A stretch of DNA of 64,000 bases, from IMG/VR virus record IMGVR_UViG_3300009130_000012, positions 36,845-100,844 of that record. One strand, 5' to 3'. A program made the translations under genes and the position numbers. The notes below the pieces were generated by a model. That model was given only the letters and a program-made list of their open reading frames with translations. It was not told the DNA's origin and ran no database searches. Below are positions 12,700 to 53,816 of the stretch, one piece after another; within the stretch, counting starts at the first letter, position 1; each line of letters begins with the position of its first letter. This stretch comes from a virus.

Positions 12700-14664
12700 A
12701 TGGGATTCATCACTAAATTAGATTATTCAGACAATAGACAGATACGTCAAAGGGTAGAAACTCAAACTCAACTTTCTGGTGGTACTACATTCGGAGTTCC
12801 TTATACTGAGTTAGTTAGAGGTGTTGATGATTCTACTACTGGGGTGACATCTACTAGTAGTGGTGTGACATCTACTTTTTCTGGTAACACTGGTACTACT
12901 ATATTCTTTTTTGGTGATACTAGAATGGAATTAGCTGGTGCTGATTTAGAACCCATAACACCTAGTAATAGTGGGGACACTCAAAATGCTGGTGTCACAT
13001 ATACTGGTGATACCACGACTATAGTGAATAATAATCAAGTGTTTTTGACGTATACTGGAATTGGTTACAATTTAATAGTAACTAATTTTGAAGAGGTTTC
13101 TGCTGGGAATTATACTGGGGAAACAACAAGTGATTTAACTTTTTATAGTGGTAATACTGCAGATTACACTGGTAGTACTGTATGGTTAACTTCTGAAGAT
13201 TCAGCAAGAGTAAAAGGTGTGTTATATGCTAACGTATTAAGTGCCACTACTATAGTAGGGACAACAATTAGTGGAGTTACTGATAATTTTACTACTGGTT
13301 CAACACTTGTTGGTTCTACTGCGTATTTTAATAGAACTGATAGTCTTAGTGCTTACACTCTTGATTTGTCGTCATTAGTTGTAAATGATAATTTTACTAC
13401 TGGTTCAACACTTGTTGGTAATACGTTGTATTTTAATAGAACTGATAGTCTTTCAGCGTATACTGCTGATTTATCATCACTGGGTGGAGTTTCGTATGGT
13501 GTGTGTGCTGTATATAACTCTGGTGGTACACCAACTTATTATTCTGATTTAAGTGCAGCTATAACTGCTGCTAGTGCTGGAGATACTGTACAAATTTATT
13601 CAGACATTACAGAAACAGGAGCAGTTACTATAACTTGTAAAAACGGTGTTAACATTAACTTCAACGGATTTACTTATACGTTAAACAACGCAGGTACAGA
13701 TAACGCTTTTTCAGTACCTGCTGGTGTGTCAATGGAAATGTTTAACGGTAAGGTTTTAAGGTCAGGTGGAACAGGTTCGGTTTCTAACAGTTTAGCAATT
13801 CACACAACAGGAGCGGGAACATTCAAGGCTAATAACATGGTCTTTGAAAGTGATTTTGGAACTGCTGGACATGTTGGAAATTCTGCGAGAAGTTTTTACG
13901 GTGGAGTTTTTTACAGTTCGGATAGAGGTTTTTATTTAAGTAACGGAAACCTTTATAACGCAATTTGCAACGGTGGAACTAATGCAGGCTTGCAAATACA
14001 AAATAATGGAAAGGCTTATAGTTGTGAAGGTTACTCAAGTAGTAGTTATGGTATTTTCAATAATACTAGTAATGCTTATTTTTGCGTAGGTCGCTCAGAT
14101 GGAAATTACGGTTTTTGGGGTGCTGGTGGAAATTCTCACGATTGTAAAGGTTACTCAACTGCTAACATAGGTACTTACATATCTGCTAGCGGCTCTTTTT
14201 CCAATATTTACGGTTTTTCTTCATCTTCTTATGGTGTGAGAATATTGGGTAATGGCGTAGGGGTTATAGGTTATTCAACGGCTTCTCAAGGGGTTTACTA
14301 TTCTAACGGAGGTGGAAGTAGCCATGTAATCCAAGATGTAAAAGCTTCTTCAACAGCTGCTGCTGGTATGTATATTTTATTAAATGCTGGTAAGGTTGAG
14401 TTTTCTAATTTAGATGTAGGTTCAAGATGGAATGATGTTTCGGGACATGGAATAATAGTTAGTGGTTCTGATAATGATATAATTTTAAATGGAGGTAGTA
14501 TAAGGGTTGAAAATGCTTCAGCTAATTGTTTGTATAATAATGTAGCTAAAAGTTGTTATTTTAATAACCTTAGTTTTGTAAATTCAACAACGGCAGTTAA
14601 TGCTAATATTACAAACTTACAAACTAATACATCTGATGATTACGGTAATATTTTAGTAGGATAA
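12700..14664 (+). CDS. Tail fibre/spike-like protein with a C-terminal beta-helix-like domain
   Basis: T/G/S-rich N-terminus, tandem 35-aa repeat, YYSDLSAAI...GDTV entry into ~21-aa beta-solenoid repeats, and a SDDYGNILVG end. Confidence 0.7.
   Translation: MGFITKLDYSDNRQIRQRVETQTQLSGGTTFGVPYTELVRGVDDSTTGVTSTSSGVTSTFSGNTGTTIFFFGDTRMELAGADLEPITPSNSGDTQNAGVTYTGDTTTIVNNNQVFLTYTGIGYNLIVTNFEEVSAGNYTGETTSDLTFYSGNTADYTGSTVWLTSEDSARVKGVLYANVLSATTIVGTTISGVTDNFTTGSTLVGSTAYFNRTDSLSAYTLDLSSLVVNDNFTTGSTLVGNTLYFNRTDSLSAYTADLSSLGGVSYGVCAVYNSGGTPTYYSDLSAAITAASAGDTVQIYSDITETGAVTITCKNGVNINFNGFTYTLNNAGTDNAFSVPAGVSMEMFNGKVLRSGGTGSVSNSLAIHTTGAGTFKANNMVFESDFGTAGHVGNSARSFYGGVFYSSDRGFYLSNGNLYNAICNGGTNAGLQIQNNGKAYSCEGYSSSSYGIFNNTSNAYFCVGRSDGNYGFWGAGGNSHDCKGYSTANIGTYISASGSFSNIYGFSSSSYGVRILGNGVGVIGYSTASQGVYYSNGGGSSHVIQDVKASSTAAAGMYILLNAGKVEFSNLDVGSRWNDVSGHGIIVSGSDNDIILNGGSIRVENASANCLYNNVAKSCYFNNLSFVNSTTAVNANITNLQTNTSDDYGNILVG
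13281..13482 (+). repeat. Tandem 105-bp (35-aa) repeat, module A; further copies near 39279 and 41043
   Basis: TGATAATTTTACTACTGGTTCAACACTTGTTGGT is identical at 13281 and 13386; it encodes DNFTTGSTLVG..YFNRTDSLSAYT.DLSSL. Confidence 0.9.
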
Positions 14665-14683
14665 TAAATAAAAAATAAATAAA

Positions 14684-14872: not shown

Positions 14873-14878
14873 TAGAAT

Positions 14879-15460
14879 ATGGCAATAACAACAGTAAATA
14901 GTGGAGTTAACCAAAAAAAAGGTATTACATATACTCATATAACAGATTCGTCAGTTGACTGGACTGGTGTTACTAATGATACCTATTTCTATGATAAAGC
15001 TACTGATTTACCATATTATAAGAATTCTGGTGGTACAGTAATATCAGTATTTGAAGGTGGTGCTCCTTCTTTAAATAACGGAGAAGTATTTGTGGGTAAT
15101 GCATCTAATGAAGCTACTTCTGTAGCGATGAGTGGAGATGTTGCCATTACTAACGCTGGTGTTACCACAATACAGTCTGACGCTGTTACTTATGATAAGA
15201 TGCAAGATACTACTCAAGCAGCTTTATTAGGTAACGATAACCCAGCTGGAGGTACAGTTAATGAAATTCCAATAGTTGACCAATATTTAGCAACTGGTAC
15301 AGTAACAGCTTTATTAGAAAATACTTCTAACTGGGATGTAAACGGAAATTACACAGGAGCATCAATAACAGCAACATACCAAGGTCAATCACACTATGAT
15401 GGTAACTATTGGTTTACTGCAGTAGCTGATAACGTTTGGATAAGATTAATTAGAGGATAA
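14879..15460 (+). CDS. Short fibre-related protein with N-terminal module B
   Basis: DSSVDWTGVTNDTYFYDKATDLPYYKNS module; GNASNEATSVAMSGDVAITNAGVTTI fibre repeat. Confidence 0.65.
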   Translation: MAITTVNSGVNQKKGITYTHITDSSVDWTGVTNDTYFYDKATDLPYYKNSGGTVISVFEGGAPSLNNGEVFVGNASNEATSVAMSGDVAITNAGVTTIQSDAVTYDKMQDTTQAALLGNDNPAGGTVNEIPIVDQYLATGTVTALLENTSNWDVNGNYTGASITATYQGQSHYDGNYWFTAVADNVWIRLIRG

Positions 15461-15464
15461 AATT

Positions 15465-18824: not shown

Positions 18825-19322
18825 ATGAGTAAAGTTCAATTAAAAGCCGAAGATTTAAAACCAGAGTCGTTAAGTGCAACTGGTAGACAAATGTATGGAT
18901 TAGATGAATATGTTTATATTAAATCATTTAAATATGATGACAATAATAACATCCAAGTAAATTTCTATGTATTAGTTAAAATAGATGAAGATAATTTTGA
19001 TTTAATCGCAAATGTTTCTACACCAGATTACAAATATTCTATTGCTGACGGTAAATCATTTACTGATGTTTATGGTTATAACGTTTACGCTGTTGATGGT
19101 AGTGGTAATACCATTTATGAGGATGTTGAGGTGATGTCGGTAGACGAATCTGGTAATACAATAACAAATATTGTTAGTCAACCAAAGAAGAGAACTAATG
19201 ATTTTACTAGAAACTTTACCGCATTTTCAACTTTAATTATTCCATTAATTTTTGCCGATATAAAAAACTATTTAGGATACCATGCTAATGAAAATGGTGT
19301 ACTAGACCAAATCCCAGAATAA
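18825..19322 (+). CDS. Acidic hypothetical protein (possible fibre chaperone)
   Basis: Has its own TATTTAT motif at 18800-18806. Confidence 0.6.
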   Translation: MSKVQLKAEDLKPESLSATGRQMYGLDEYVYIKSFKYDDNNNIQVNFYVLVKIDEDNFDLIANVSTPDYKYSIADGKSFTDVYGYNVYAVDGSGNTIYEDVEVMSVDESGNTITNIVSQPKKRTNDFTRNFTAFSTLIIPLIFADIKNYLGYHANENGVLDQIPE

Positions 19323-19347: not shown

Positions 19348-21066
19348 GTGAGCAATATAAAAGAACATAGATTTAATAATTTAGACTCTAGGTTATCTAA
19401 CTTAGATTACTGGGATTTTCATATCTCTTATGATTTAAGGACTGATTGTTGCTCAGAAGCTATAGATTCATTAAAAACACCATTATCTATCGATTTTAAT
19501 GTCAGCAGTATTTACTCTGGTAATACTATTACTAGTTTAAACTCTTGGACGGGAGCGACTAATAGTGGTGTTACGTTATTTGATATTGGACTAACTGGTG
19601 TAGATAATGGTCTAATATTAATTAATAAAATTAGCGGAGACACTTCTAACAGTCAAACAGTAAATGCTCTTACTGGTTCTACTTTAACATTATCTTCTGG
19701 TGATACTAAAATGTTTTTCACACAAGTTAGTGGAAATACAGGTTCTTATGTATACCCCATAGATATTATTACTCCAGATACTGCAACCACATTTAATGGT
19801 GTATATAGTAGATTATGCGGCGGATTTTATCAAGGATTTTATAAACTACAAGAATATGATTATGAAGTGTTACCGACTAGGATGGAAAAGGGTTGGACTT
19901 CAGAATTTTGGTTACGTAGAGGTGATAATTGTAGCGGTACTACTAGTGGTACAACACTAAATGATACTTACCCAGAAAATAAAGGATTATTCTTCTATAT
20001 GGGTACTAGAGCAGAAGATAAATTCTGGAACTGTTTTGAAGGATTAAACACAGGGGTTACCTCTGGATGTACAAGTGGAGCTACTAGTGGATGTACTATT
20101 ATTAAAGAGTCAGACGTTACTACATCGTCTGGAGTTCCTTTATGTCCTTCTGGTAATACCATTGATGTTACTACAGATAATGGATTTTTAATATATGATA
20201 GAACTGAAGGTGGGTATTTAGCTTGCAATTTTACTGGTGATAGTATTACAATTTCTGAACCAATAGAGATAAAAGTAGATGATAGAAATCCGTTCTTAAT
20301 ATATCATAGAGCGGATTGTAATGATAGTTGTGGTAGTTGTAGTGGTACTGGATGTACAACTGGAACTTTAGCTTGTGACGACGATAACATATCTATTATA
20401 CAACAAGAATTGAATCCTATGGTTAGTGTAATCGACAACGCTATTGGATTTAGAATTAAAGACGATGGTAGTATAGGTGTTAGGCTTTTAACCTCTACTG
20501 GTTCGTGTATTGATGATATTTATGTAACTGGAACAACGATTAATGAAGCTTACTCTAATGTTGGGTTAATTAATGACGAATGGAATCATGTAGTTATTAA
20601 ATATATTGCCAACACTAGGTTAGATGATTGTGAATTACAAGTTGCTGATGCTAGAACGGGTAGATTATATTTTTATGTAAATGGATACCTTAAATTCACT
20701 ATTAATGATTTCCCAGAATTTATACCTAAACCAATCCAAAATTATAAAGAAAAGGTTCAAGGGGTTGGTTATAATATGAGTATTGGTGGTGGTACACAGG
20801 GATTGATTGAAAGTGTTACTTTTGACGGTCCTGACCCGTTAGATTCTGGTAGTGTAATTGAGAAAAATTTCGCTGGAACATTTATTGGTGACATATCTCA
20901 ATTTAAATTTCATACGACACCATTAAACTTATGTCAAATTAGGTCTCAGTTTGATTCGGATTCGTCTAGATATGACGTTAAGAAAAACGATACTTATTTA
21001 ATTTTGCAAGAAAACGATGGTTACATCTTTCAAGAGAATGGTATTGAAATTGAATGGCCCATTTAA
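19348..21066 (+). CDS. Cys-rich virion protein with a ConA/LamG-like domain
   Basis: WTSEFWL, WNHVVIKY, LYFYVNG, IGGG and FIGDISQF LamG-type motifs; 17 Cys. Confidence 0.65.
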   Translation: MSNIKEHRFNNLDSRLSNLDYWDFHISYDLRTDCCSEAIDSLKTPLSIDFNVSSIYSGNTITSLNSWTGATNSGVTLFDIGLTGVDNGLILINKISGDTSNSQTVNALTGSTLTLSSGDTKMFFTQVSGNTGSYVYPIDIITPDTATTFNGVYSRLCGGFYQGFYKLQEYDYEVLPTRMEKGWTSEFWLRRGDNCSGTTSGTTLNDTYPENKGLFFYMGTRAEDKFWNCFEGLNTGVTSGCTSGATSGCTIIKESDVTTSSGVPLCPSGNTIDVTTDNGFLIYDRTEGGYLACNFTGDSITISEPIEIKVDDRNPFLIYHRADCNDSCGSCSGTGCTTGTLACDDDNISIIQQELNPMVSVIDNAIGFRIKDDGSIGVRLLTSTGSCIDDIYVTGTTINEAYSNVGLINDEWNHVVIKYIANTRLDDCELQVADARTGRLYFYVNGYLKFTINDFPEFIPKPIQNYKEKVQGVGYNMSIGGGTQGLIESVTFDGPDPLDSGSVIEKNFAGTFIGDISQFKFHTTPLNLCQIRSQFDSDSSRYDVKKNDTYLILQENDGYIFQENGIEIEWPI

Positions 21067-21111: not shown

Positions 21112-23157
21112 ATGTCTGTAAATAATAACAATAGAAAGATTACACAATTACCTAAAATTACGACATCGGGAATGACTGATGACGATATTTTTGTGTTTGT
21201 TAATAGCGGTGCCACTAGTCAAGGTACATTGGGGGATATAGCTAGTTATTTTGCCACCAATACTGATACATTTTCAACTGGAGGTACTTATAATCAAACT
21301 GGCTCTACTATTACAATCGATAATAATCAAGGCGGTAGTTTCGATATTACTGGTATAACTACAAGTATTAATGGTGATAACGGTATTACAATACAAGATG
21401 GTGATACGGTAGAGTTGGGTGGTAGATTAAAGTCTGGTCTTACCACAATACAAGGTTTTAGTGGAGGTACATCTATATTACAGTTAGGAGACTCTTCAAA
21501 TAGAATAGGTACTTTATTTGGATTCGGAAACTTTATTAGCTTTACCGCTGGAGATGTAGCTGATGATACTGCTACACTTACTTTACTTACAGCTCAAGCT
21601 GGGATAATAACTGGTAAAAATGGTTACGTTGAAATAGGTACTAATGATGCTACTTTAGGTCAAAGTACTAGATTTAAGGTTGACCACGGTATCACGACAT
21701 TTACTGACACTATACCTAATTCTGCTGGAATACAATATGGTGCCGATTACTCTAATAACTATACTGATTTATCACTTATTACTAAAGGTGATGTTAAAAC
21801 TGGTAATATACTTTATGTAGATAATGTTAATGGTAACGATAGTACTGGGGAAAAGGGTAGTTTAGTTAATAAATATGCTACCATTTCCGCTGCTGAAAGC
21901 GGTGCGACAAGTGGTGATACCATTGTAGTAATGACGATGCAAAATGAAGAAGCTAATCTAGGTAAGAACCAGATTACTTATCATTTTTTACCTGGTACTG
22001 GTATAAAAAACACAACAACAACTGGTAGAATATTCAACGATAATGGAAAAACTGATAGTGGAGCAAACCCACTTTTCTTTAAAATAACTGGTTGGGCTGA
22101 TTTTACTTCAAGAACGGACCAATCAGCATTATGGGGGGGTACTCTGTATCTTTACGAAGGGTCTTCCGCTGAGTTTGAATTTAATAGTTCAACTATTTTA
22201 AACTTAGATGGTTCAAAGGCAGATTCTGGATATCATTTTTGGGCGCAAGCGGAATATATAAACGGTGCTGGGGCGGGTAAGTTAGCCACACTTAAAGGTA
22301 GGGTGTCTAGAGATGTGATAGGCGGTCATTATTTCTTGGGTGCTCATTCGGCAATTGCTAATATAGACGTTGGGGGTAATGTAGATGTATCCGCTATTTT
22401 TGTTAGTGCACAAGGTTGTGAATTAGTTGACGTTAATGTAGACCAAAAAGTAACATTAGGTTATTCTACAACACACAGTTTTAAATTTTTTCTAAACGTT
22501 GATGGGGTTCCCTTTTTCACTGGTAATATTGATACTATAGAAGGTACTAATATGATTAATGTTAGTGCTAAAATGGTTGAGTGGCAAAATGACGGGACTA
22601 ACCAAAATGGTATATGGGGTATTTTTAAAATATATGAGTATTATGATAACACAAACACACATATACGTAATAATGTTAATATTAATATTGATGAAATTTT
22701 AGTTAAAGATGGAACACAGACAGTTCAAAGACCATTTATAGTTTCAAGTAATATGGGTAACGATACTGAAACTGTAGTTAAATTTAATAACTGTAAAATA
22801 ACTATTGAAGATGGGTTTCCATTTACTGGTATTGCTTCTAGTTCACAAAAAGATAAATATAATATAATGTTTCAAGATTGTTCGATTGATTATCAAAGTA
22901 CTGGATTTACTTCTGGTTACACAATATTTGATACGTCATATGCTATGCCTCATTTTGATAATACTAGATTTAAAGTTTCTGACACATCTTATGAAATAGT
23001 TGGTAGTACTGTTGATAAAGAAATCGCAGTTTATGGTGGAGGTTTGTTTACTAATGGTGTCGTACCAGATGATATAGTAAATATTAATACTGAATTAGCT
23101 ATGTCTGCTGATACAACTAACGTATTTAGTGGATTAAATAATATAAAAATAATATAA
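21112..23157 (+). CDS. Fibre/spike protein with a beta-helix-like domain
   Basis: RKITQLP N-terminus; ILYVDNVNGNDSTG...YATISAA...SGDTIVV entry motif; shares ELGG and YTD.SLITK segments with 37572. Confidence 0.7.
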   Translation: MSVNNNNRKITQLPKITTSGMTDDDIFVFVNSGATSQGTLGDIASYFATNTDTFSTGGTYNQTGSTITIDNNQGGSFDITGITTSINGDNGITIQDGDTVELGGRLKSGLTTIQGFSGGTSILQLGDSSNRIGTLFGFGNFISFTAGDVADDTATLTLLTAQAGIITGKNGYVEIGTNDATLGQSTRFKVDHGITTFTDTIPNSAGIQYGADYSNNYTDLSLITKGDVKTGNILYVDNVNGNDSTGEKGSLVNKYATISAAESGATSGDTIVVMTMQNEEANLGKNQITYHFLPGTGIKNTTTTGRIFNDNGKTDSGANPLFFKITGWADFTSRTDQSALWGGTLYLYEGSSAEFEFNSSTILNLDGSKADSGYHFWAQAEYINGAGAGKLATLKGRVSRDVIGGHYFLGAHSAIANIDVGGNVDVSAIFVSAQGCELVDVNVDQKVTLGYSTTHSFKFFLNVDGVPFFTGNIDTIEGTNMINVSAKMVEWQNDGTNQNGIWGIFKIYEYYDNTNTHIRNNVNINIDEILVKDGTQTVQRPFIVSSNMGNDTETVVKFNNCKITIEDGFPFTGIASSSQKDKYNIMFQDCSIDYQSTGFTSGYTIFDTSYAMPHFDNTRFKVSDTSYEIVGSTVDKEIAVYGGGLFTNGVVPDDIVNINTELAMSADTTNVFSGLNNIKII

Positions 23158-23978: not shown

Positions 23979-25997
23979 ATGGCTAATAAGTTAATATTAA
24001 GAAAACAAAAAAGCCCATATACTGGTGATTTTGCAGATACTACTAAATCTAAAACATTATCTATTTCTGAATTAGATAATAATCAGATATATCTTAAGGG
24101 GTTAAATATAATTACTGGTTCCACATCTGGAACTGATATAATACTAGATAAACTTAATGGTGACCAAATAACTATCGACCTATCGGCATTTTCTGGTGGG
24201 ACAAGTGGTGGCACAGTAGATGTAGATTACGGTAATATTATTTTCGTATCTGAAGTTGGCGATACTGGTAGCACTAGGTCAGAAATAATTGGTAATATAA
24301 ACAAACCTGTTGACCTTAATTGGGCTAGTGTAATTGCACAGAGTGGTGACACAATACATGTTAAGGCTGGGGTGTATAATTATGACCCATCAATAGCCAC
24401 TGGAAACACCCTTAGCGTTACTGGCGTAAATCATTACTTCGAGGCAGGGGCTAAGGTATATAATAATACAAACAGGGCGTTATTTGTTAAAGACCCAAGT
24501 ATTAACTATGGTGCAGCTACTGAGGGTAATGTATACGGAAGTGGGTCTTTTTACACCACAAACAATTATACGTATTCTCATATATTCTACGATGGTTCAT
24601 TTGATACAGATTTTTCTACCATGTCTGTTTTTGAATTTGACGAATGTACTTCTGTATCTACAGGAGATATGTTTTATGTTGGCGTTAGTGGAGCACCAAG
24701 AGGTATTATAATTAAGGGTAAAAATAGGATTGTTAGTTATAGTGGAAGCTGTATGTATTTTAATACTACTTCAGCTACGAAAATTACAGTGGATTGTCCT
24801 CAAATTATTAGTGAAGCACCTGGTAAAAGAACTATAATAACTGGAACGGGTGGTGGAAGTGCTGGTGATTTAATAATCAATAGTAATATTATTAGTTCAT
24901 ATGGGACTGGTGGAGTCGAATCATCAATAAGTATTGTTGGTAGTGCTGGTAGAGTAATATGTAACGCCTCTTATATTAAAAGTATTAGTGCTTTTGGGGT
25001 ACCGACTAGGGTTTTGGATGTAACCGCTGGTAGAATAGACAGTGCGATGATTCAAGCTAATTTAATTAATTTAAACGCACATGTTGGTGATTTAAAATTA
25101 TACGCCCATTCAATAGCTAACGTTACCCTATGTGATAGATTTCTTATAGCGGGTATAATTGATGAAAGCTCGGTAGCTAACATATGTATGAGTAATATAT
25201 TATATGATACTACTGGAACTACCAGTACTAATACAAGTTATGGTACATTAAATTTAAGTACGGTTGATGTTGATGTTTATGGAACGGAGATTCCTAACAC
25301 CTACACAAGTTACACGTCTGGTTCTAAAGAGTATTTAATTAGTGGAATTAAGGGTAAAACTAACTTAATTGGTAATTGGGATAATGGAGATACTATAACG
25401 ACTAATAATACTAATATTTTAAATGTGAATAATAACGCACACATTAAAAATACAACAATTAATGTACATGGTGGTACATTAGAAGTATTAGGTAAAACAG
25501 ATGACACTCAAATTAACTATACTGGTGGAACAGTTATGATGAATGGAGCTACAATGGTTGTTAGTGACCAAAATAAACAAATTATCACTACCCCTAATTC
25601 GGGTACAACAATTAAAGTTTATAGTGGAGGTCTTAATACGAATAAATTTGGTCCATTTTCTGGTTCTACTGAACGTGTAAAAGTTGATGTATCTGGTACT
25701 GGTGCAGTAGTTACGGTTAATAGTGAAACATTTACTAGTACAACAGGAACAACTTCATCTGAATCAGCTGCAGAATTATTAGCTTTAATAAATGCTAGTG
25801 GCACTGTTAACGCAACCGCATCACAAGATACACTTGGTACTGACACATACATTTATATAGAGTCTGATATAATTGGTACTGCTTTGGTTTTAAGTTACGG
25901 AACAAACACTGCCTTTAATTCAACAATAAAACTTAACTCTAACCCGACTACTGAAATAGTGGGAGGTATGGTTATAATTGATTCACAAATAACTTAA
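23979..25997 (+). CDS. Fibre/spike protein with a beta-helix-like domain
   Basis: LSISELDNN N-terminal fibre motif; GNIIFVS...SGDTIHVKAGVY; T/G/S-rich. Confidence 0.7.
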   Translation: MANKLILRKQKSPYTGDFADTTKSKTLSISELDNNQIYLKGLNIITGSTSGTDIILDKLNGDQITIDLSAFSGGTSGGTVDVDYGNIIFVSEVGDTGSTRSEIIGNINKPVDLNWASVIAQSGDTIHVKAGVYNYDPSIATGNTLSVTGVNHYFEAGAKVYNNTNRALFVKDPSINYGAATEGNVYGSGSFYTTNNYTYSHIFYDGSFDTDFSTMSVFEFDECTSVSTGDMFYVGVSGAPRGIIIKGKNRIVSYSGSCMYFNTTSATKITVDCPQIISEAPGKRTIITGTGGGSAGDLIINSNIISSYGTGGVESSISIVGSAGRVICNASYIKSISAFGVPTRVLDVTAGRIDSAMIQANLINLNAHVGDLKLYAHSIANVTLCDRFLIAGIIDESSVANICMSNILYDTTGTTSTNTSYGTLNLSTVDVDVYGTEIPNTYTSYTSGSKEYLISGIKGKTNLIGNWDNGDTITTNNTNILNVNNNAHIKNTTINVHGGTLEVLGKTDDTQINYTGGTVMMNGATMVVSDQNKQIITTPNSGTTIKVYSGGLNTNKFGPFSGSTERVKVDVSGTGAVVTVNSETFTSTTGTTSSESAAELLALINASGTVNATASQDTLGTDTYIYIESDIIGTALVLSYGTNTAFNSTIKLNSNPTTEIVGGMVIIDSQIT

Positions 25998-36531: not shown

Positions 36532-37575
36532 ATGGCTACACCTAAAGGATATAGAAAAAAATTAAATCTTAATAACCCTAAAATTGGTAGGGAGCGTCGC
36601 AAGGAAATCCTTGATGAGGCAACAGTTAATACTACAAATTTACCAAAGGGGGTTATGATTGAGGATATGGATTCTGAATTTATAGAATTCGCTAATAGTG
36701 ATATGTCTATAACTATAGACGGTCAAAAGGTTCCAGTAATATTTTTATCCTTACAGAGATGGACGGAATTTGCTAAGAGTTGGCAAACTATGGATGAATT
36801 TAATAACCTTAAATTACCATTCATAACGATAGTTAGAAATCCAGATATACAACAAGGTGAAAATCAAAGCGGTTATTTTAATATACCTGGTCGTCAGAAT
36901 TTTACATACTTAAGAGTCCCTAATAACAAATATGGTAAGGATGGTTCTCAAGGTATTGATATTTACAAAATACCTCAACCAGTCGCTGTAGATGTTACTT
37001 ATGAGGTTAGGTTTTTCTCTAATAAAATGAGAGATTTAAATGAAACTCATAGAATTATACAGAAGTTATTTCAATCTAGACAACATTATATCACACCTAA
37101 TGGTCATTATATGCCATTACACTTAGAAAATGTGTCTGATGAAAGTGAAATAAATGACATAAACTCTAGGCGTTATTATGTGCAAATGTTTGAAATGAAA
37201 CTATTGGGTTACATTTTAGACGAGAATGATTTTGAAGTTAGTCCAGCTATCACTAGAATATTACTTATGAATGAGATAGCGACTAAACAACAACCTAGAT
37301 TTAGGGTTAAAACGAATAAATTAGATAAAACTATTAATATTACAATTGTATCCAAACCTAACTCTACCGATGAAGTAGAATTCACTTCTCAGTATGATTC
37401 TAGATATGACGAAATACAATTAATTTCTAATGTTAATGATGTCACAATGTTTGTTAACGAAATTCAAGTAACTTCATTTCCAATCATGGTAAAACAAGGT
37501 GATAGAATAAGATTAGTGATAGATAAAAATCCAGCATTAACTGGTAGATTTATATTAAAAGGAGTAATAATATGA
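36532..37575 (+). CDS. Tail terminator/sheath stabiliser (T4 gp15-like)
   Basis: KVPVIF...RW, LPFITIVR and PQPVAVDVTYEV patterns. Confidence 0.65.
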   Translation: MATPKGYRKKLNLNNPKIGRERRKEILDEATVNTTNLPKGVMIEDMDSEFIEFANSDMSITIDGQKVPVIFLSLQRWTEFAKSWQTMDEFNNLKLPFITIVRNPDIQQGENQSGYFNIPGRQNFTYLRVPNNKYGKDGSQGIDIYKIPQPVAVDVTYEVRFFSNKMRDLNETHRIIQKLFQSRQHYITPNGHYMPLHLENVSDESEINDINSRRYYVQMFEMKLLGYILDENDFEVSPAITRILLMNEIATKQQPRFRVKTNKLDKTINITIVSKPNSTDEVEFTSQYDSRYDEIQLISNVNDVTMFVNEIQVTSFPIMVKQGDRIRLVIDKNPALTGRFILKGVII

Positions 37576-40500
37576 GCAGTTACGGTAAGTCAAGTGCAAA
37601 TGTAAATAAAACAATAGTATTAGAAACTATAGAATCTGGTTTTGATGGTACTTTAACTGGCTGTACTTCTATTGTTACTAATTTAGTACAAAGTTGTACT
37701 GGTAATACTTCTATTACTATGGGTACTGACTTAATTAGTACTAATGACCCAATACAATTAGGTTCATTAAGTGCAAGTACTATCTTTAGTGGCGGTACTA
37801 ATCTTATCGATTTAATAGATAATAGAGACACGTATTTAAGTGGTTCTACATTATCTGGAAGCACTTTAATTCTTACTAGAAATGACGGATTTAATGTAAT
37901 TCAAGATTTATCATCAGTTAATAGTGGTGATACATTTGTAACTGGTGCTACCTATTTAGCATCAAATGATACTATTACATTAAGTAGGAATGATGATGTA
38001 GATATAGATATAACTGGTGTTACAGATACCTTTGTTACTGGTGGTACACTGACTGGTAGTGCTATTTTAGTATTAGACAGGAACGATAGTTTATCTGCTA
38101 TTACAGTAGATTTAAATCCGTTATTAGATGATACTAATTCATTTGTTACTGGTAGTACATTTAGTGATGATACGTTAAGTCTAACACTTAATAATGGTGA
38201 TACTGTAGAAACTGTAATTAATGAATTTAATAATTTAACAGTTTCTGGAGATGCTTCAGTTGGTGGTACATTAACTGCAAGTACTGTAAACGCTAATACT
38301 TACTTAAGTGGTGGTACTAATATTTTAGATATAGTAAATGCTAATGATACGTTTGTTACTGGTGGTACACTTGTAGATAAAACATTGGTATTAGATAGAA
38401 ATGATTCACTTTCTGCAGTAACAGTAGATTTAAGTGGGTTAACTACTAACGCAGACAACGGTCTTACACTTACGACTGGTGGAACTATAGAATTAGGCGG
38501 TACTATTAAAAATAATAGCACTAAATTCTTAAATGAGAATCCTTTGAATTTTAAGTTAATTAGATGGGGGGATGCCGATGGTTCTGGTAGTAGATTTAAT
38601 GCTATGGGTAGAGTTGATACCCTTACTAATGCTGGTAGAATGTACTTGGATGCAGTAATGCCAACACAAAGTGCTCTTTTTGAATACAAAAGTAGAAGTT
38701 TTAGTAATCGTTTATATGCGAAAAAAGCTGGTAATGTCGATATGGATTTTAATCCTAGTTCAACATTTAGTGGTATTACACATACACAAAGTGAAACGGC
38801 TAGTTCTTACTTTAGAAAAATATATTTAACTGATGACGATGGTACTGGTCATACTGAATATAATCAAACTACTTCACTACATCAATTAGATGCTGCTGAT
38901 GCTAATAATTATACTGGTCGTTTAACCGTTACTCCTGGGTTAACAAGTATATTTTCACAAGATGCTAGTGGTCTTGCTGGTTATTTCTTTTCACCATCAT
39001 TATTATTTTTAACAAATAAAGATTCTGCTGGACTTTTAGCGTCTGGTAATAATGTTCAATTACAAAGTGATTCAAATAATTACATTTGGTTGAATGAGTT
39101 AATCACTAATGATAATATACTTAAAGATGCTACCACAAATAAAAGAGGTCTTAGATATACAAACTTTGGTGAAATTGATGTTAGTGGTACAAGTGCGAAT
39201 TATTCTACACTTGTTGGTACATCGTTAGTACCTAAGAAATATGTTGATGATGAAATCTCGTCTATAGTAGATAATAACGATTTTACTACTGGTTCAACAT
39301 TAGTTGGTAATATAGCGTACTTTGATAGGACAGATAACCTTTCTGCTTATACATTAGATTTAACTAGTCTATCGGCTTCACTTTCTGCTGATACATATAC
39401 TGATAGTGGTTCCGTTAGTTATGTAAATGAAGATGGTACACTTACATTAACGCTTAATGATACTAGTACTGTTGTTATTACTGGATTTACTGATGTACAA
39501 ACAACTGGTAGTACCCTTGTTGGTTCTACAGCTACATTTACTAAAAATGACGGTAGTACATTTGATTTAGATTTATCAGCATTAGATGTTAACGATACCT
39601 TTATTACTGGTATTACATTTAATCCAAGTAATTATCAAATTACAGCTACTCGTAATGATGGATTTAGTACGTCTCCAATTGATTTAAGCATACTCTCAGC
39701 TGATGTAACAATCACTGGTGGTACATATGATATAGATAGTGGTGTAGTTACCTTTACTAATAACTCTGGTGGGACGTTTGATGTTTCTGGGTTTACTTCT
39801 GGAATGACGGATAGTTATACTACTTCTGCTAATATTAGTGGTAATAGTATTACATTTGATAATAATATCAATGGTTCTAATTTCTATAATGTAGATTTAA
39901 CACCAGTATTAAGCGGTATTACACTTAGTGGTGGTAATGGTATTACAATAGGAACTGGTAATACAATTGATTTAGGTGGTTTATTGACCGAATCGGTTAC
40001 AATCTTATCTGGTGACACTACTAATTCATTAGATATCGGTGGTAATACAGCTGGTGCTAACTTAATTCAAACTAGAATCAATGCACAGTCGTTCCAAGCC
40101 AATATGCAAACCACTTATGCTGGTGGTGGTGTTGGTACCTATGTTAACTCTAATCCAGGTTATTGGTCGGTGACTAATAATATTGCTGGAACTAGCACAT
40201 CAATACATTCAGTAGGTCCAGGTGCTTTATTGTCAACATTTAATGATGCTGGTAATAATAGAACTAGACAAATATCAGTTGGTAATACTGAGATTAAAAT
40301 AAATGCTCAGAACAGTACTACAAATGATGCTAACGTAATGGACATGGATGAAACTGAAATCAGTATTTATTCAGTTAGTGGTGGTACTAATGAACTATTT
40401 AGACTTAAGTTTGACCTTACAGGTGAGACAGCACAATTTATTGATAATAGAGCTAATACTAGGGGTATTGAGTATGATAGAGATATCTCAAGTGGTTATA

Positions 40501-40841
40501 CTGATAACTCATTAATTACTAAGAGAGACCTTGATAATAGAACAAATAGGTATACTCAAACTGGTATTACAGGTACAAGTGTAGTTGATTCAATTAGTAC
40601 AGGTACTACTGAAGCAGCTACATGGCATTATAGTGTTAATGATGGTTCTAATTTAAGAGCAGGTACTGTTGTGGCTGGTTGGTTAGGTAGTAATGTAGTT
40701 TACACTGAAACATCTACAACTGACATAGGTGATACTAGTTCGGTAACATTTGATGTAAATGAAAGTGGTGGATATATTAGACTTGTAGCTACAGCTACTA
40801 GTGGAACATGGATAGTTAAAGTTAACAGATTATTGATTTAA
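37572..40841 (+). CDS. Long repetitive tail fibre-like protein
   Basis: Many DTFVTGGT...L.RND repeats (module A family), two ELGG/DLGG units and a C-terminal YTETSTTDIGDTS domain. Confidence 0.75.
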   Translation: MSSYGKSSANVNKTIVLETIESGFDGTLTGCTSIVTNLVQSCTGNTSITMGTDLISTNDPIQLGSLSASTIFSGGTNLIDLIDNRDTYLSGSTLSGSTLILTRNDGFNVIQDLSSVNSGDTFVTGATYLASNDTITLSRNDDVDIDITGVTDTFVTGGTLTGSAILVLDRNDSLSAITVDLNPLLDDTNSFVTGSTFSDDTLSLTLNNGDTVETVINEFNNLTVSGDASVGGTLTASTVNANTYLSGGTNILDIVNANDTFVTGGTLVDKTLVLDRNDSLSAVTVDLSGLTTNADNGLTLTTGGTIELGGTIKNNSTKFLNENPLNFKLIRWGDADGSGSRFNAMGRVDTLTNAGRMYLDAVMPTQSALFEYKSRSFSNRLYAKKAGNVDMDFNPSSTFSGITHTQSETASSYFRKIYLTDDDGTGHTEYNQTTSLHQLDAADANNYTGRLTVTPGLTSIFSQDASGLAGYFFSPSLLFLTNKDSAGLLASGNNVQLQSDSNNYIWLNELITNDNILKDATTNKRGLRYTNFGEIDVSGTSANYSTLVGTSLVPKKYVDDEISSIVDNNDFTTGSTLVGNIAYFDRTDNLSAYTLDLTSLSASLSADTYTDSGSVSYVNEDGTLTLTLNDTSTVVITGFTDVQTTGSTLVGSTATFTKNDGSTFDLDLSALDVNDTFITGITFNPSNYQITATRNDGFSTSPIDLSILSADVTITGGTYDIDSGVVTFTNNSGGTFDVSGFTSGMTDSYTTSANISGNSITFDNNINGSNFYNVDLTPVLSGITLSGGNGITIGTGNTIDLGGLLTESVTILSGDTTNSLDIGGNTAGANLIQTRINAQSFQANMQTTYAGGGVGTYVNSNPGYWSVTNNIAGTSTSIHSVGPGALLSTFNDAGNNRTRQISVGNTEIKINAQNSTTNDANVMDMDETEISIYSVSGGTNELFRLKFDLTGETAQFIDNRANTRGIEYDRDISSGYTDNSLITKRDLDNRTNRYTQTGITGTSVVDSISTGTTEAATWHYSVNDGSNLRAGTVVAGWLGSNVVYTETSTTDIGDTSSVTFDVNESGGYIRLVATATSGTWIVKVNRLLI

Positions 40842-40904: not shown

Positions 40905-43739
40905 ATGGCAAACGAATTTAAGGTAAAAAATGGGATTATTGTTAATGGTGCGTATAGTGGTGGTACATTAACTGCTGACACTATCAATTCAAATGGTATT
41001 ATCACATCTGGTGGTACCGATTTATTGGATATTTTTACTAATGATTATACAACTGGTACTACTATCGTTGGAAATACTCTTTACTTTGATAGGACGGATT
41101 CTCTTTCAGCATATACTGCTGATTTATCATCACTTGGTGGTGCTACTGAATTAAATGATTTAACTGACGTAACAACAGCATTACCTAGTACTCCTACTGA
41201 GGCTGATGATGGTAAAATACTGTTTTATGACCACGATATTAGTCAATGGACTACAGATGATGCCGTAACTCATGGAACTGTGGTTATAAATGCTAAAAAA
41301 GATAGTGCTGGTACAATCGCAAAAGGATTACCAGTTTACTTAGTAGGATTTGATTCTGATTTACATACAGTAGAATTGGCAAACGCAAATAGTGGTTCTA
41401 CAATGCCAGTAATAGGGTTTGCTTCGGAACAGTTAGATAATAGTAATTCTAAACATGTAACCACTTTTGGAAAACTTACTGGTATAGATACATCATCTAC
41501 TGTTAGTACATTGAATCCTAATGGAGAAACATGGGCTGTTAATGATGCCTTATATATATCTACAACTACAGGAGGGTTAACAAAAGTTAGACCTACAGGT
41601 GGTAGTTCATTAATTCAGCGTATAGCTAAAGTTTTAAAAGTAAGTGCTACTGGTGGGCAAATATTTGTTTTTAATACCGCAAGAACGTCAGGGTTGCCTA
41701 ATCTTACTACTGATAATGTTTGGGTAGGAGATGTTAATGGTATTCCTCAAGAAGTAAATAAAAGTACTTTAGGTGGTAATACGCTGTATTCTGCTGATGA
41801 TTCATTAACTGGTAATAGACTTTTTAATTTAGATAGTAAGTCATTAACTATAACTGGAGGTACTACTAATAATGCTACTCCGATTAATTTTGAATTTGGG
41901 GGATTTTGGCAAGGATATACACGTTGGGGTGATGAAGGTGATTTACAAATCAAATCAAATAATAATAAACACCCGTTAAAAGTATTTAAGAAAACAGATA
42001 CTACGAATCCAACTTTACAAGTTAATTCTAGTGGGGGTGGTTTATTAACCGAATTATGGTCGTATCAAGATATAGGTGGTAGTACAACTAAAATTGACAT
42101 TAATAACACGTCTATTAGACATTATTTTGGGGGTGGTGAATATCACAGAATACAATTAGGTGGTGCTGGTTCGGGAGTATACTATTGGCAAAGTGGATTT
42201 GGTTCATTAGGTGGATTTGTAGTTGGTGGAAATTCTGTTATAGGTACAGAAAATATTTCTTTACAAGGTTCAACTCTTGTTAGTGATAAGTTTGAGATTC
42301 AAACTACAACAGATGGATTCTTGATGCCACGTTTGACAACGGCTCAAATGAATGCCATCTCATCTCCAGATACACACTTGGTTATATTCAATACAGACCT
42401 TAATGCTTTATATAGGTACAATGGTTCTGCATGGGTGGCTATGGCTGCTGGTTACGGTTTGGTGGGGGTAGTAAGAGATTCTGACAATGGAAATCCTACT
42501 TTCTATTCTGATTTACAATCGGCTTTAGATACATGTAAGGCATCTGGAAGTTATAATACTGTAACCTTGTATGGTAACCATACCACCACTACTGGAATTG
42601 TTATAGATAATACTTTTGACTATAAGTATTTAACGATAAACTTTAATGGTTTTAAGCTAGAAAACACACAATCAGATGCTACTCATACTCTTGAGGTTAA
42701 AAATCTAGTTCTAGGAGCCACTACAGTTTTATTAAATGGAAGCTTAATAAGAGAAAATGGAACAACAGGAAAATGTTTAAATCATAGTAGTACTACAAGA
42801 CATGTTCAAATGTCTAAAATGTATCTATATAATGAAAATTATCTAACACTAAATTTTGGGTCAAGTGTAGATACTGCATTTGACTTTGGTGGAAGCATTT
42901 TTGAAAGTGGTCCAAGTGCTACAATAGAGCCTTTAAGATTATCGTATTCTAATTTTAGAAACTTTACTGTTATAAGCAATTCTTCTCAATCTGCTTTATT
43001 TATGACTAATAGTGCCAATGTTACAGATTTTACTGCAATAAATACAAGTACTGGCGGTGGTGTAGTTACTCAAACTAGTTGTGTCGCATCAAACTTTTAC
43101 GTTGAAACTGTTAGCGGAAATGCTGTAGGTGGTGGTATTTTTAGTAATTTTGTTGCTAAGAGCGTAAGCGGAATAGCAGTAAATAGTCCAACCGAAGCAC
43201 ATGATTTTGTAGCAACAACTGGAGATAATAGAGCAGTTAATATTAGTGCTGGAGAGAATTTTTCAAATTTTAGAGCAGAAAATAACTCTTCTACGAATGC
43301 TTGTGTTTATTTGACTAATACAAATGAATGTGTTCAAGCTTATGCTAAAAATAAAGGAAGTGGTGTAGCTTTTCAAGTTTTTAGAAATCAAGCAAATAGG
43401 GCTTTTTCTTACAACAAAATAACAGCGATAAGTGAAGGTGGAATAGGTGCTTCAGTATCATCTAATCCAGGATTTAAAATATTATTTTCAGATTGTGAGT
43501 TTGTATCAAAGTGGGACAATGTTGGAGGTCATTCTGTTCAAATAGGTGGAAATGATACGGTTTTAACAAACTGCTCCCTTAGAGTTAGGAATGCTGGAGC
43601 TAATAATATTACAGCATCATCATCAATATCTGCTAAAGTAGTTAACTCTACATTTGATGGTGCGACTACACCAATAAACTCAAACGTAACTTTATCAAAT
43701 ACGTTTACTAGTGACCCATATGGAAATATAACTATATAG
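40905..43739 (+). CDS. Mosaic fibre/spike protein (modules A, E, G, C plus beta-helix-like domain)
   Basis: MANEFKVKNG start, LNDLTDV, GFLMPRLTTAQ, YSDLQSAL and a SDPYGNITI end. Confidence 0.75.
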   Translation: MANEFKVKNGIIVNGAYSGGTLTADTINSNGIITSGGTDLLDIFTNDYTTGTTIVGNTLYFDRTDSLSAYTADLSSLGGATELNDLTDVTTALPSTPTEADDGKILFYDHDISQWTTDDAVTHGTVVINAKKDSAGTIAKGLPVYLVGFDSDLHTVELANANSGSTMPVIGFASEQLDNSNSKHVTTFGKLTGIDTSSTVSTLNPNGETWAVNDALYISTTTGGLTKVRPTGGSSLIQRIAKVLKVSATGGQIFVFNTARTSGLPNLTTDNVWVGDVNGIPQEVNKSTLGGNTLYSADDSLTGNRLFNLDSKSLTITGGTTNNATPINFEFGGFWQGYTRWGDEGDLQIKSNNNKHPLKVFKKTDTTNPTLQVNSSGGGLLTELWSYQDIGGSTTKIDINNTSIRHYFGGGEYHRIQLGGAGSGVYYWQSGFGSLGGFVVGGNSVIGTENISLQGSTLVSDKFEIQTTTDGFLMPRLTTAQMNAISSPDTHLVIFNTDLNALYRYNGSAWVAMAAGYGLVGVVRDSDNGNPTFYSDLQSALDTCKASGSYNTVTLYGNHTTTTGIVIDNTFDYKYLTINFNGFKLENTQSDATHTLEVKNLVLGATTVLLNGSLIRENGTTGKCLNHSSTTRHVQMSKMYLYNENYLTLNFGSSVDTAFDFGGSIFESGPSATIEPLRLSYSNFRNFTVISNSSQSALFMTNSANVTDFTAINTSTGGGVVTQTSCVASNFYVETVSGNAVGGGIFSNFVAKSVSGIAVNSPTEAHDFVATTGDNRAVNISAGENFSNFRAENNSSTNACVYLTNTNECVQAYAKNKGSGVAFQVFRNQANRAFSYNKITAISEGGIGASVSSNPGFKILFSDCEFVSKWDNVGGHSVQIGGNDTVLTNCSLRVRNAGANNITASSSISAKVVNSTFDGATTPINSNVTLSNTFTSDPYGNITI

Positions 43740-51029: not shown

Positions 51030-53816
51030 ATGGCATCAAACAAACAAGTATTTGTAAGCCCTGGTGTTTATACAAGTGAATTAGATTTAACATTTGTAAG
51101 CAGACAGGTAGGTGTTACTACAGCTGGTATTGTAGGGGAGACGGTAAAGGGTCCTGCTTTCCAACCAATCTTTGTAAGTAACTATGACGAATTTAAGGCT
51201 TTCTTCGGAAGTCAAAACCCAGAAAAATTTGCTGGTAACGGTATGCCTAAGTATGAAGCACCGTATATCGCAAAATCTTATTTAAGTGAAACTAATCAGT
51301 TGTTTGTAACTAGAGTTTTAGGATTTACTGGTTATGAAGCTGGACAATCTTGGGCTATTACATTAGACGCAGCATTAGATAGTTCTACTGTAGGTGCAAC
51401 TGGTGGTGGTACCACTGACGCATCTTTAATTTCATTTACTGCCGATACTGATGGTAATATAACTAGTTTAACTAGTACTGACCCATTAGTACAAGCATTA
51501 TATGATGATGGTTCTTTAGTGACTGATTTAGCGTTTTTAGGAAGTGCTAGTACTGGAGATACGGCTACAATTGGTAATACTTTCCTAAAAACTTCAGAAA
51601 CTGGAACTAACTTTAGTGGTACATCTTTAGATTTAGTTGTAACTACAGAGGTTCCTACTACTGGTGGTACTGGTGTTGCGAGTGGAGTTACAGTACATTA
51701 CTCTGGTACTTCATACTCAGAAGTTGAGGATAAAGTTGTTGCAGTATTACGTTCTAGAGGTCAGTACGATGGTAATGAGCAAGTAATTTTCGAATTCAGT
51801 GGTTCTAACGAAGTTAATATTTCCACTAGCAATGTGGCTGCACAAACAAATCCTTTAGCGGCATTTACACTATCTGGTACATCTAACGTACAAGGATTAG
51901 TTTCTTATGACGTATCTTTAGATAAGGGTAAGAAAAATTACATCACTAGAGTATTAGGTGTTAGTGAAAAAGATAGTAATTCAGCATTATTTGTTGAAGA
52001 ATTGTATCAAGCTATGTTTGATAAATACAATGGTGAAGGTAAGGTTAGAGGTATTAACTTAGAATTAGTTGAGTATGATTTATCATTTGATGATTATACT
52101 TCAGAGTATACTAATGCAATTACTCCATATATTGTTTCTGAATTAAGAGGTTCTGAAGTTCTTAAACTTTTCAGATTACACACTATTTCTGACGGTAATT
52201 ATGCTAATAGAGAATTTAAAATATCTATTGCTAATATTCAACCAGATGATAAAGAATTTGATGTTGTTGTTAGAGCATTTAGTGATACTGATGCAAACCC
52301 AGTTATCTTAGAAAGATTTTCAAGATGTACTATGGACCCAACATCAAATAACTACATTGCTAGAAGAATTGGTACTGTTGATGGTGATTATCCAGCAATT
52401 TCTAACTATATTTTAGTAGAATTAGATACTGATAATGATACTTCAGATGCGTTCCCAGCTGGTTTCACTGGATATCCAGTAAGAGACTACGATGCTAATA
52501 GTAATACTGGTGTACAAGCACCATCAATCATTTATAAAACTTCATACGCTTCAACGGAGAAGAAAAGAAAGTTCTTCTTAGGTCTATCTAACACTGAAGG
52601 TATTGACCAAGATTTATTTGATTATAAAGGTGTTGACTCTTCTGGTGATGCGTTTACTGGATTAACTAAAGGATTCCATATGGATTCTGGTGCAACTTCA
52701 GTAACTATTGGAAGTGAGACTTTCGATTTCGAGGTTGGTAGTGCAGAATTTAGAACTGATTTAGGAGTTGAGGGTACTGATTACGATAAGACAAACTCAC
52801 GTAAATTTACTTTCGCACCATATGGTGGATTTGACGGATGGGATATTTACAGAGACCAAAGAACTAATGAAGATACTTATGCTATTAGTGGAACTAAAGG
52901 TGCGTTATCTTTTGGTAAGTTCGACGCTAGAGCATTGAGTAATGGTGAAGAAGGAAACAATTCTGATTATTATGCTTATTTAGAAGCAATTAGAACTTTC
53001 TCTAACCCAGAATCAGTTAATATAAACGTATTAACAACTCCAGGTATTAACACATTAGACAACTCTAACTTAGTTGAGGAGACTATTGACATGATTGAAA
53101 CTGAAAGAGCAGATGCACTTTATATTGTAACTACTCCAGATTCAGAAAATGGTCAAGTTCTTGATATTGATGATTTAGTAGATAGATTAGATGGACAGTA
53201 TGATTCAAACTATACTGCTACTTACTTCCCATGGGTTCAGTACAACGATACTGAAAACAACCAATACATTTGGTTACCACCAACAAAAGATGTTTTAAGA
53301 AACATTGCGTTAACTGATAACATCGCATTCCCTTGGTATGCTATTGCTGGTGTGAATAGAGGTCAAGTAGACGCTGTTAAACCTAGAATAAACTTAACTT
53401 TACCACAAAGAGAAGATTTATATTCTGGTAGAATTAACCCTATCGCTAACTTCTCAACTGAAGGTACGGTTATTTGGGGTAACAAAACGTTACAAGAGAA
53501 AGAAAGTGCTCTTGATAGAATCAACGTTAGAAGACTATTATTAAGAACTAGAAAATTAATTTCTGCAGTTTCTATCAGATTATTATTCGAACAGAATGAT
53601 GATATTGTAAGAAACGAGTTCTTAAGTCTTGTTAACCCAATTCTTGAGAGTATCAGACAAGAAAGAGGTATTACTGAGTTCAAAGTTAGACTTAATGAGA
53701 ACGCTGATAGAAATACACTTTCTGGAACTATATTCTTAGTACCAACTGATGCATTAGAAAGAATCGAAATTGAGTTCACAGTTACAAATGCTGGTGCCTC
53801 TTTTGATAACATTTAA
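51030..53816 (+). CDS. Contractile tail sheath protein
   Basis: FVSPGVY, GET.KGP, ATYFPW, PWYAIAG..RG, IWGNKTL, LDRINVRRLL and LFEQND motifs. Confidence 0.95.
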   Translation: MASNKQVFVSPGVYTSELDLTFVSRQVGVTTAGIVGETVKGPAFQPIFVSNYDEFKAFFGSQNPEKFAGNGMPKYEAPYIAKSYLSETNQLFVTRVLGFTGYEAGQSWAITLDAALDSSTVGATGGGTTDASLISFTADTDGNITSLTSTDPLVQALYDDGSLVTDLAFLGSASTGDTATIGNTFLKTSETGTNFSGTSLDLVVTTEVPTTGGTGVASGVTVHYSGTSYSEVEDKVVAVLRSRGQYDGNEQVIFEFSGSNEVNISTSNVAAQTNPLAAFTLSGTSNVQGLVSYDVSLDKGKKNYITRVLGVSEKDSNSALFVEELYQAMFDKYNGEGKVRGINLELVEYDLSFDDYTSEYTNAITPYIVSELRGSEVLKLFRLHTISDGNYANREFKISIANIQPDDKEFDVVVRAFSDTDANPVILERFSRCTMDPTSNNYIARRIGTVDGDYPAISNYILVELDTDNDTSDAFPAGFTGYPVRDYDANSNTGVQAPSIIYKTSYASTEKKRKFFLGLSNTEGIDQDLFDYKGVDSSGDAFTGLTKGFHMDSGATSVTIGSETFDFEVGSAEFRTDLGVEGTDYDKTNSRKFTFAPYGGFDGWDIYRDQRTNEDTYAISGTKGALSFGKFDARALSNGEEGNNSDYYAYLEAIRTFSNPESVNINVLTTPGINTLDNSNLVEETIDMIETERADALYIVTTPDSENGQVLDIDDLVDRLDGQYDSNYTATYFPWVQYNDTENNQYIWLPPTKDVLRNIALTDNIAFPWYAIAGVNRGQVDAVKPRINLTLPQREDLYSGRINPIANFSTEGTVIWGNKTLQEKESALDRINVRRLLLRTRKLISAVSIRLLFEQNDDIVRNEFLSLVNPILESIRQERGITEFKVRLNENADRNTLSGTIFLVPTDALERIEIEFTVTNAGASFDNI

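Follow-up and report, generated by a model that had tools for sequence, protein, structure and literature searches.

Tail-fibre and baseplate-side proteins of a large, uncultured marine phage carry many copies of the short motif [Ser/Thr]-Gly-x-Thr, and the same stretch of DNA encodes glycosyltransferases (GTs). Is this motif an acceptor site at which the phage glycosylates its own virion, as a sequence-only reading of the DNA had proposed, or does it belong to the fold of the proteins that carry it? The window analyzed here comprises 64,000 nucleotides, namely the final 64 kb of one phage contig, which has a length of 100,844 bp and a GC content of ~31%. The completeness of this contig was estimated by CheckV to be ~30%. 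Relatives harboring the same genes have a size of 345–368 kb with direct terminal repeats, and the contig is therefore a fragment of a jumbo myovirus genome of ~350 kb.

The closest match of the tail sheath is found in the Microcystis phage Mel-JY01 (33% identity), and none of the cultured phages searched encodes a relative of the protein 19348 (proteins are named here by the first coordinate of their gene in the window). The lineage is similar to the "moraphages" (PMC12619734), which are large phages of aquatic habitats, have predicted hosts among the Flavobacteriia and possess four core orthogroups of GTs.

Occurrence of the motif in virion proteins

The counts made by hand in the sequence-only reading were all reproduced by the recount. 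The protein 12700 contains 14 copies within residues 1–277 and one in its C-terminal 377 aa, 19348 contains 16 (among them TGVTSGCTSGATSGCT), 37572 contains 32, 21112 and 23979 contain 11 each, the tail sheath five and the small acidic protein 18825 two, while one copy each is present in the helicase and the 58503 protein and none in the polymerase. Significance was evaluated by 2000–5000 composition-preserving shuffles per protein. This resulted in p ≤ 0.0005 for 12700 (15 observed vs. 2.5 expected), 19348 (16 vs. 1.1), 21112 (11 vs. 2.0), 23979 (11 vs. 2.3) and 37572 (32 vs. 4.3), and in p = 0.0025 for 18825 (2 vs. 0.07). For the tail sheath the excess is weak (5 vs. 1.3, p about 0.01). The shuffle test, which the same reading had named as a check, thus shows that composition does not account for the counts. 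If Ala is allowed next to Gly, [Ser/Thr]-[Gly/Ala]-x-Thr reaches 6–12x chance in the tail-fibre and baseplate-side proteins. Furthermore, when the gapped residue pairs of the motif-rich proteins were all scanned without bias, G.T came out on top (z = 9.5), followed by SG; both pairs are unremarkable in the other large structural proteins and in the rest of the genome.

The proteins and modules concerned, all encoded on the + strand, are the following:

12700..13530, +, N-terminal 277 aa of the fibre protein 12700, 14 copies vs. 1.8 expected
13276..13482, +, 34-aa repeat, two copies in 12700 (HMM, E about 1e-18)
18825..19322, +, small acidic protein 18825 with two SGNTI 16 residues apart, 2 vs. 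0.07
19348..20547, +, N-terminal and central 400 aa of 19348, 16 copies vs. 1.2 expected, 13 family-conserved sites
20548..21066, +, C-terminal ConA/LamG-like lectin jelly-roll of 19348 (structure model), 0 copies
21112..22011, +, N-terminal 300 aa of the fibre-like protein 21112, 9 vs. 1.5, remainder at chance
23979..24458, +, N-terminal 160 aa of the fibre-like protein 23979, 6 copies vs. 0.35 expected
37572..40841, +, repeat-rich fibre protein 37572 of 1089 aa, 32 copies vs. 4.3 expected
40905..41144, +, first 80 aa of 40905, harboring a single unit of the 34-aa repeat, 3 vs. 0.43
51030..53816, +, tail sheath, 5 vs. 1.3, 3/5 sites kept in the ortholog of the relative G004

Outside of these modules the motif is present at chance level. 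This holds for the C-terminal 377 aa of 12700 (1 observed vs. 0.75 expected), for the remaining 864 aa of 40905 (2 vs. 2.5) and, at 1.2x, for the G/S/T-rich fibre paralogs 26037, 40905 beyond residue 80, 43757, 46644 and 48860. The major capsid protein contains one copy (0.5 expected), portal and terminase contain none, and all other ORFs together lie at 0.8x the expected count. In G004, a complete relative of 353 kb, the excess is limited to two blocks, that of fibre and sheath and an unannotated one at 98–110 kb. An avoidance of the motif in non-virion or cytoplasmic proteins was not seen (about 30 vs. 25 expected in G004, 9 vs. 11 in G000).

Hence, the proposed enrichment in external virion proteins holds for N-terminal modules of some fibre and baseplate-side proteins and fails for five fibre paralogs, the major capsid protein and the portal. 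The glycan shield over the whole virion, which had been derived from it, is not supported: capsid, portal and distal fibre domains are unmarked, and the sheath carries only 5 copies vs. 1.3 expected.

Some of the copies lie in the 34-aa repeat, which follows the pattern D-x-F-x-TGxT-L-x-G-...-R-x-D-x-LSAxT-x-DLS with the motif at a fixed position in each unit. This repeat is common to 12700, 37572 (eight units, window positions 37827–38441 and 39270–39695) and 40905 and is present in about 2000 cluster representatives; a search for bacterial relatives of the repeat region gave none. Could the signal then be spurious, caused by protein composition, by paralogous repeats or by the DNA itself? 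The proteins are G/S/T-rich, part of the copies sits in a duplicated repeat and the codons at position 0 of the motif show an NNT bias, which all would fit such an origin. However, composition is ruled out by the shuffles, and paralogs equally rich in G/S/T stay at chance. Paralogous repeats are ruled out by the HMM, which covers only ~11 units vs. ~97 motif copies. A DNA-level signal is ruled out as well, since the NNT bias at position 0 reflects a genome-wide avoidance of junctions between an NCA codon and a following GGN codon. An artefact is thus considered to be extremely improbable.

Residue preferences and conservation

To determine the specificity of the motif, two independent sets of sequences were used, one made up of 149 cluster representatives with a relationship to 37572 and the other of 119 homologs of 19348. 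The enrichments are as follows:

[ST]G.T: 5.9x in the 37572 relatives, 11.5x in the 19348 family
[ST]A.T: 4.3x in the 37572 relatives, 8.4x in the 19348 family
[ST]G.S: 1.2x in the 37572 relatives, 1.6x in the 19348 family
[ST]G.[VI]: 1.0x in the 37572 relatives, 1.3x in the 19348 family
[DN]G.T: 0.8x in the 37572 relatives, 0.5x in the 19348 family
AG.T: 0.5x in the 37572 relatives, 0.4x in the 19348 family

A hydrophobic residue at position i+4 is strongly coupled ([ST]G.T[ILVFM], 9.6–15x), and together with the pattern enrichments this defines the motif as [ST]-[GA]-x-T-hydrophobic. At position i, Ser and Thr are about equally frequent (46/43%). The spacings between copies are 4, 7, 8, 11, 17, 34 and so on, with no period of three. 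The codons of the motif Gly and of the Thr at i+3 correspond to background usage which, given the genome-wide nature of the NNT bias, indicates that selection acts on the protein.

More than 1300 full-length homologs of 19348 were found. In 120 of these the mean number of copies is 13.6 vs. 1.2 expected, and 10–13 sites keep their position even in sequences with as little as 30% identity (13 among the 120 homologs); homologs at 30–36% identity still contain 11.2 copies on average. The motif Gly is conserved to 85% overall and in up to 120/120 sequences at single sites, and at decaying sites it is the residue most often retained (DGAV, EGYL, KGLE). The copy number varies from 2 to 20 among the orthologs, and at the non-conserved positions of the family copies occur at 5.9x chance, distributed over 62 rare columns that lie almost all within residues 50–350. 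Judged from these alignments, copies are apparently gained anew at variable positions.

In 12700, residues 1–178 form a conserved anchor domain, which in 47/80 loci is found immediately upstream of the ortholog of 19348 and contains conserved copies of its own (LSGxT, SNSGxTQ, TGRTIW, VSGITRT). The C-termini behind this anchor domain range from 225 to 1639 aa. A profile homology between 19348 and the N-domain of 12700 was not detected (hhalign probability 0.3%). The claim that the motif is shared across unrelated folds is therefore borne out for this pair and has to be restricted for the others, since 12700, 21112, 23979, 37572 and 40905 have mosaic modules in common.

Three other phages served as controls. 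In T4, 23 structural proteins contain 17 copies vs. 12.9 expected; a T4-like Flavobacterium phage shows a diffuse 1.7x without any individually significant protein; and Mel-JY01 contains 40 vs. 39.6 expected. These results rule out a generic idiom of phage fibres. Both the Flavobacterium phage and Mel-JY01 encode GT2 genes, so the idiom is specific for the clade and the possession of a GT alone does not predict it. Taken together, the excess of the motif is real, is selected at the level of the protein, is conserved and is limited to proximal modules and to one clade.

A possible structural role in turns and strand starts

The AlphaFold model of 19348 (pLDDT 78.8) places the sites between residues 57 and 131, modeled at pLDDT >90, in coil directly before beta-strands, and according to the DSSP context the conserved Gly of these sites is found at strand-turn-strand junctions. 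The C-terminal half of the model displays the ConA/LamG-like jelly-roll. In the model of the 12700 N-domain, residues 41–155 (pLDDT >90) form very long beta-strands, with the motif copies at strand ends and inside strands. No solved fold matched the N-modules of the two proteins, and a search of the motif-rich proteins against Pfam (E ≤ 10), PHROGs and PDB (sequence and profile) as well as with Foldseek and VIA-align identified only the lectin-like jelly-roll of 19348.

In both models the sites lie in turns, at strand starts or in strands in which the Thr at i+3 is opposite the hydrophobic residue at i+4; exposure of the sites is therefore more probable than burial, which the sequence-only reading had named as a refutation. 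The alternation of polar and hydrophobic residues downstream of the motif likewise suggests that the motif Thr would face the solvent.

The most likely of the readings, to which we give an even chance, is that the motif is primarily structural, a clade-specific idiom of strand starts and turns in the N-modules of fibre and baseplate-side proteins. Here, a hydroxyl residue together with a small residue would complete a tight turn or initiate a beta-strand, the motif Thr would be located on the polar face and the following residue would point into the core. The idiom would belong to the virion-proximal, beta-rich N-terminal modules and would have spread by module shuffling among the fibre genes, with a separate origin in the 19348 family. 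The motif hydroxyls could additionally be modified, and a structural and an acceptor role are not mutually exclusive; both can hold.

Several observations favor the structural role. In the predicted structures, the motif stands directly before strands (19348) or at the ends of and inside long strands (12700), and the coupling to a hydrophobic residue at i+4 is followed by the alternating polar/hydrophobic pattern. Furthermore, site positions persist to 30% identity with a Gly that can be invariant and outlasts the rest of the motif, and the motif has fixed positions in the 34-aa repeat. In addition, the most exposed surfaces, capsid and distal tips, are unmarked, and orthologs of 19348 with 2–6 copies keep the GTs.

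On the other hand, a generic turn idiom would be expected in the fibres of other phages as well, and the controls T4, Mel-JY01 and the Flavobacterium phage show no comparable excess. The residue rules are also stricter than turn statistics (Asp/Asn at i, 0.5–0.8x; Val/Ile/Ser at i+3, 1.0–1.6x; Ala in place of Gly, 4.3–8.4x), the same rules apply in two families without detectable homology, and copies are gained at 5.9x chance. The N-modules match neither a solved structure nor a Pfam family, and the proposed structural role has been deduced from models of the monomers.

Among known idioms, the tight beta-turn or ST-turn at a strand start consists of a hydroxyl residue, Gly, a polar residue and Thr at a strand-turn-strand junction, with Gly as the best conserved residue. 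Compared with a tight beta-turn of type I'/II' with an ST/Asx cap, the motif differs in that Asp/Asn do not take the place of Ser/Thr at i, that Gly is exchanged for Ala, and that neither Val nor Ser replaces Thr. The replacement of Gly by Ala argues against a glycine with positive phi. A second likeness is the Pfam tail-fibre repeat Phage_fiber_2, which reads "SGGTMTGxL." Here, a Ser-Gly-x-Thr start is likewise followed by Gly and hydrophobic residues, for example in TGGTLTGSAILVL of 37572; a match to Phage_fiber_2 or any other Pfam family at E ≤ 10 was not obtained for six motif-rich proteins. The collagen-like GXT repeats of BclA-type glycoproteins, in which Thr is the glycosylated residue, share with the present proteins the pair G-x-T as dominant signal; unlike in these repeats, a Gly periodicity of three residues is absent here.

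The restriction to proximal modules, which need to attach to the baseplate or to one another, would also fit a motif that acts as another recognition or binding element, such as a docking site for an assembly chaperone or for an adjacent protein of the baseplate, a site of another Ser/Thr modification, or a ladder for ligands or ions on a flat beta-sheet face. The strict residue identity and the recurrence in unrelated families point in the same direction. Nevertheless, no candidate partner was found, and 2–20 copies across the 19348 orthologs would be unusual for a stoichiometric docking site, so that we regard such a function as quite improbable.

Thousands of proteins from aquatic phages contain these modules, for which no match in Pfam, PHROG or PDB was obtained. 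Should the motif be structural, it would provide a compact signature for this uncharacterized family of fibre and baseplate modules.

Candidate glycosyltransferases and a possible acceptor role

Two genes on the opposite strand of the window encode the candidate writers of a glycan:

6247..7902, −, w6247, fusion of GT2 (Glyco_tranf_2_5) and GT4 by Pfam, clade-conserved and syntenic
9116..10330, −, w9116, GT4-like (GT-B), clade-core, about 52–57% identity in thousands of relatives

Both, as well as a dUTPase, are clade-core genes syntenic with 12700 and 19348, and in most loci their orthologs are located within 10 kb of the 19348 ortholog. GT2 genes are present in 27/30 long and in 5/5 complete relatives. 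The window also encodes a DegT aminotransferase (Pfam match) and a GNAT protein; the DegT gene and the remaining genes of the cluster are not conserved among the relatives.

In the acceptor role originally proposed, here limited to fibre shafts and baseplate-side proteins instead of the whole virion, the motif would be an O-glycosylation site that is read in the cytoplasm by w6247 and/or w9116, while elaboration of the glycan would be left to strain-variable GTs and to the amino-sugar genes for DegT and GNAT. We hold this to be a tentative possibility and, on balance, somewhat unlikely. It would be in line with the presence of GT2 genes throughout the relatives and the proximity of w9116 and w6247 to the 19348 ortholog, and with residue rules that are identical in two unrelated families, namely a strict hydroxyl at i, a small residue at i+1 and a specific Thr at i+3. 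The lineage-specific gain of copies at 5.9x chance, the limitation to virion proteins and to one clade, and the probable solvent exposure of the sites in the models are further points in its favor.

However, the motif does not mark the major capsid protein, the portal, the distal domains of the fibres or five of the fibre paralogs, the Gly is better conserved than the hydroxyls, and non-virion proteins show no depletion of the motif. Orthologs of 19348 with only 2–6 copies still adjoin GTs, which are clade-core, and the control phages encode GT2 enzymes and yet show no such excess. Furthermore, the known protein-targeting cytoplasmic families are absent: GT9/BAHT and GT41 enzymes gave no match over the cut-off in G000 or four complete relatives.

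Precedents for a modification of this kind exist. In mycobacteriophages, the subunits of capsid and tail tube bear glycans at their C-termini, which have been detected by mass spectrometry, according to the account of Freeman et al. (2023) given in PMC12619734. As far as this account goes, the phage studied here is similar in that GTs are phage-encoded and virion proteins are the proposed acceptors. It differs in that its capsid is unmarked and in that the candidate sites, known from sequence, are internal and lie in N-modules of fibre and baseplate-side proteins.

A second analogy is provided by the autotransporters TibA and AIDA-I, where cytoplasmic BAHT heptosyltransferases (TibC) modify many Ser residues in short loops (PMC4358343). 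As in this system, the phage proteins are repetitive, beta-rich surface proteins in which structural repeat and candidate site coincide. In contrast to it, a GT9/BAHT homolog is missing, the proteins are phage fibres instead of beta-helical passengers, and the motif-poor C-terminal domains, which are beta-helix-like, represent the unmarked parts.

If the motif is indeed a sequon, with which a very large lineage of aquatic jumbo phages marks the shafts and anchors of its many tail fibres as well as baseplate-side proteins, it would represent the first such site to be defined for protein glycosylation in phages, and this modification would become predictable from sequence in a globally abundant lineage. 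The clade-core GTs would gain a function, and the strain-variable GTs would diversify the glycan.

A further point against an acceptor role is that phage GT2/GT4 enzymes and sugar genes also serve other purposes, namely DNA hypermodification or the conversion of host glycans (PMC13326640, PMC12619734), and similar phage clusters glycosylate DNA (PMC13326640). A DNA-hypermodification cluster of the T4/RB69 type is not indicated here: it needs a dCMP-specific ThyA, with Asp at the specificity position, together with a dCTPase, whereas the ThyA homolog displays PYNIASY (Asn) and PCH and is of the dUMP type, and w7981 scores as a true dUTPase. The GTs may instead take part in a 5-hmdU-based route of DNA modification.

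A second fibre anchor and small fibre-related genes

Besides the N-terminal modules rich in the motif [ST]-[GA]-x-T-hydrophobic, a further shared N-terminus is present in five proteins, named here by gene start.

N-termini of 14879-15460, 26037, 43757, 46644 and 48860: common adaptor, ~75-140 aa

The adaptor is 36-57% identical across the 193-aa protein 14879-15460 and the four large fibre paralogs 26037, 43757, 46644 and 48860. None of these five proteins is enriched in the motif, and the adaptor is a second anchor type, separate from the motif-rich one. Residues 73-164 of a 169-aa protein (window 17275-17784) share 55% identity with the C-terminal 92 residues of fibre protein 48860-50839 (659 aa), and this small gene is therefore a duplicate of a fibre tip.

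Proteins in and around the motif-rich genes

The following features lie at or near the motif-rich proteins 12700 and 19348.

9116-10330, minus strand: GT4-like protein, clade-core enzyme
15465-17087: 540-aa protein with DUF285 repeats (Pfam, E=8e-17)
19348-21066, residues ~230-350: Cys-rich central region of 19348

The GT4-like protein gave a weak Pfam match, and a search for PDB sequence matches returned none. Its conservation (52-57% identity, at least 7687 database matches) exceeds that of the adjoining structural proteins. The genes 12700 and 19348 adjoin each other in most relatives; here, the DUF285-repeat protein sits as an insertion separating them.

Within 19348, the Cys-rich region includes an internally duplicated segment, with the family consensus NPFLIYGRA...C..C.....G.G..T.C occurring twice, and CTSGCT-type motif runs are present there as well. 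The structure model is of low confidence here; the region may hold a metal or disulfide cluster.

In 12700 (residue ~290), 21112 (~265) and 23979 (~122), a segment A/S-G-D-T-[IV] is followed by Gly-rich repeats. This arrangement is reminiscent of the N-cap seen in depolymerase domains of the right-handed beta-helix type, a likeness for which Pfam gave no support in these three proteins.

Genome context and codon usage

The relatives sharing the gene order of the 100.8-kb contig measure 345-368 kb and carry direct terminal repeats; the contig is probably ~30% of its genome. In G004, the complete 353-kb relative, a second motif-rich block falls past the end of the contig.

G004 (L087-L088), 98-110 kb: block of six unannotated motif-excess proteins

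Two of the six contain 11 motifs vs 1.2 expected and 7 vs 0.8 expected, and all six are presumably baseplate proteins.

Throughout the whole contig, window included, the codons TCA, ACA, GCA and CCA as well as GGA are strongly avoided immediately 5' of Gly codons. NTA codons preceding Gly did not show this effect. What is avoided at the junction of two codons is in effect the tetranucleotide CAGG. For Ser, NNA codons account for 38% elsewhere vs 6% preceding Gly.
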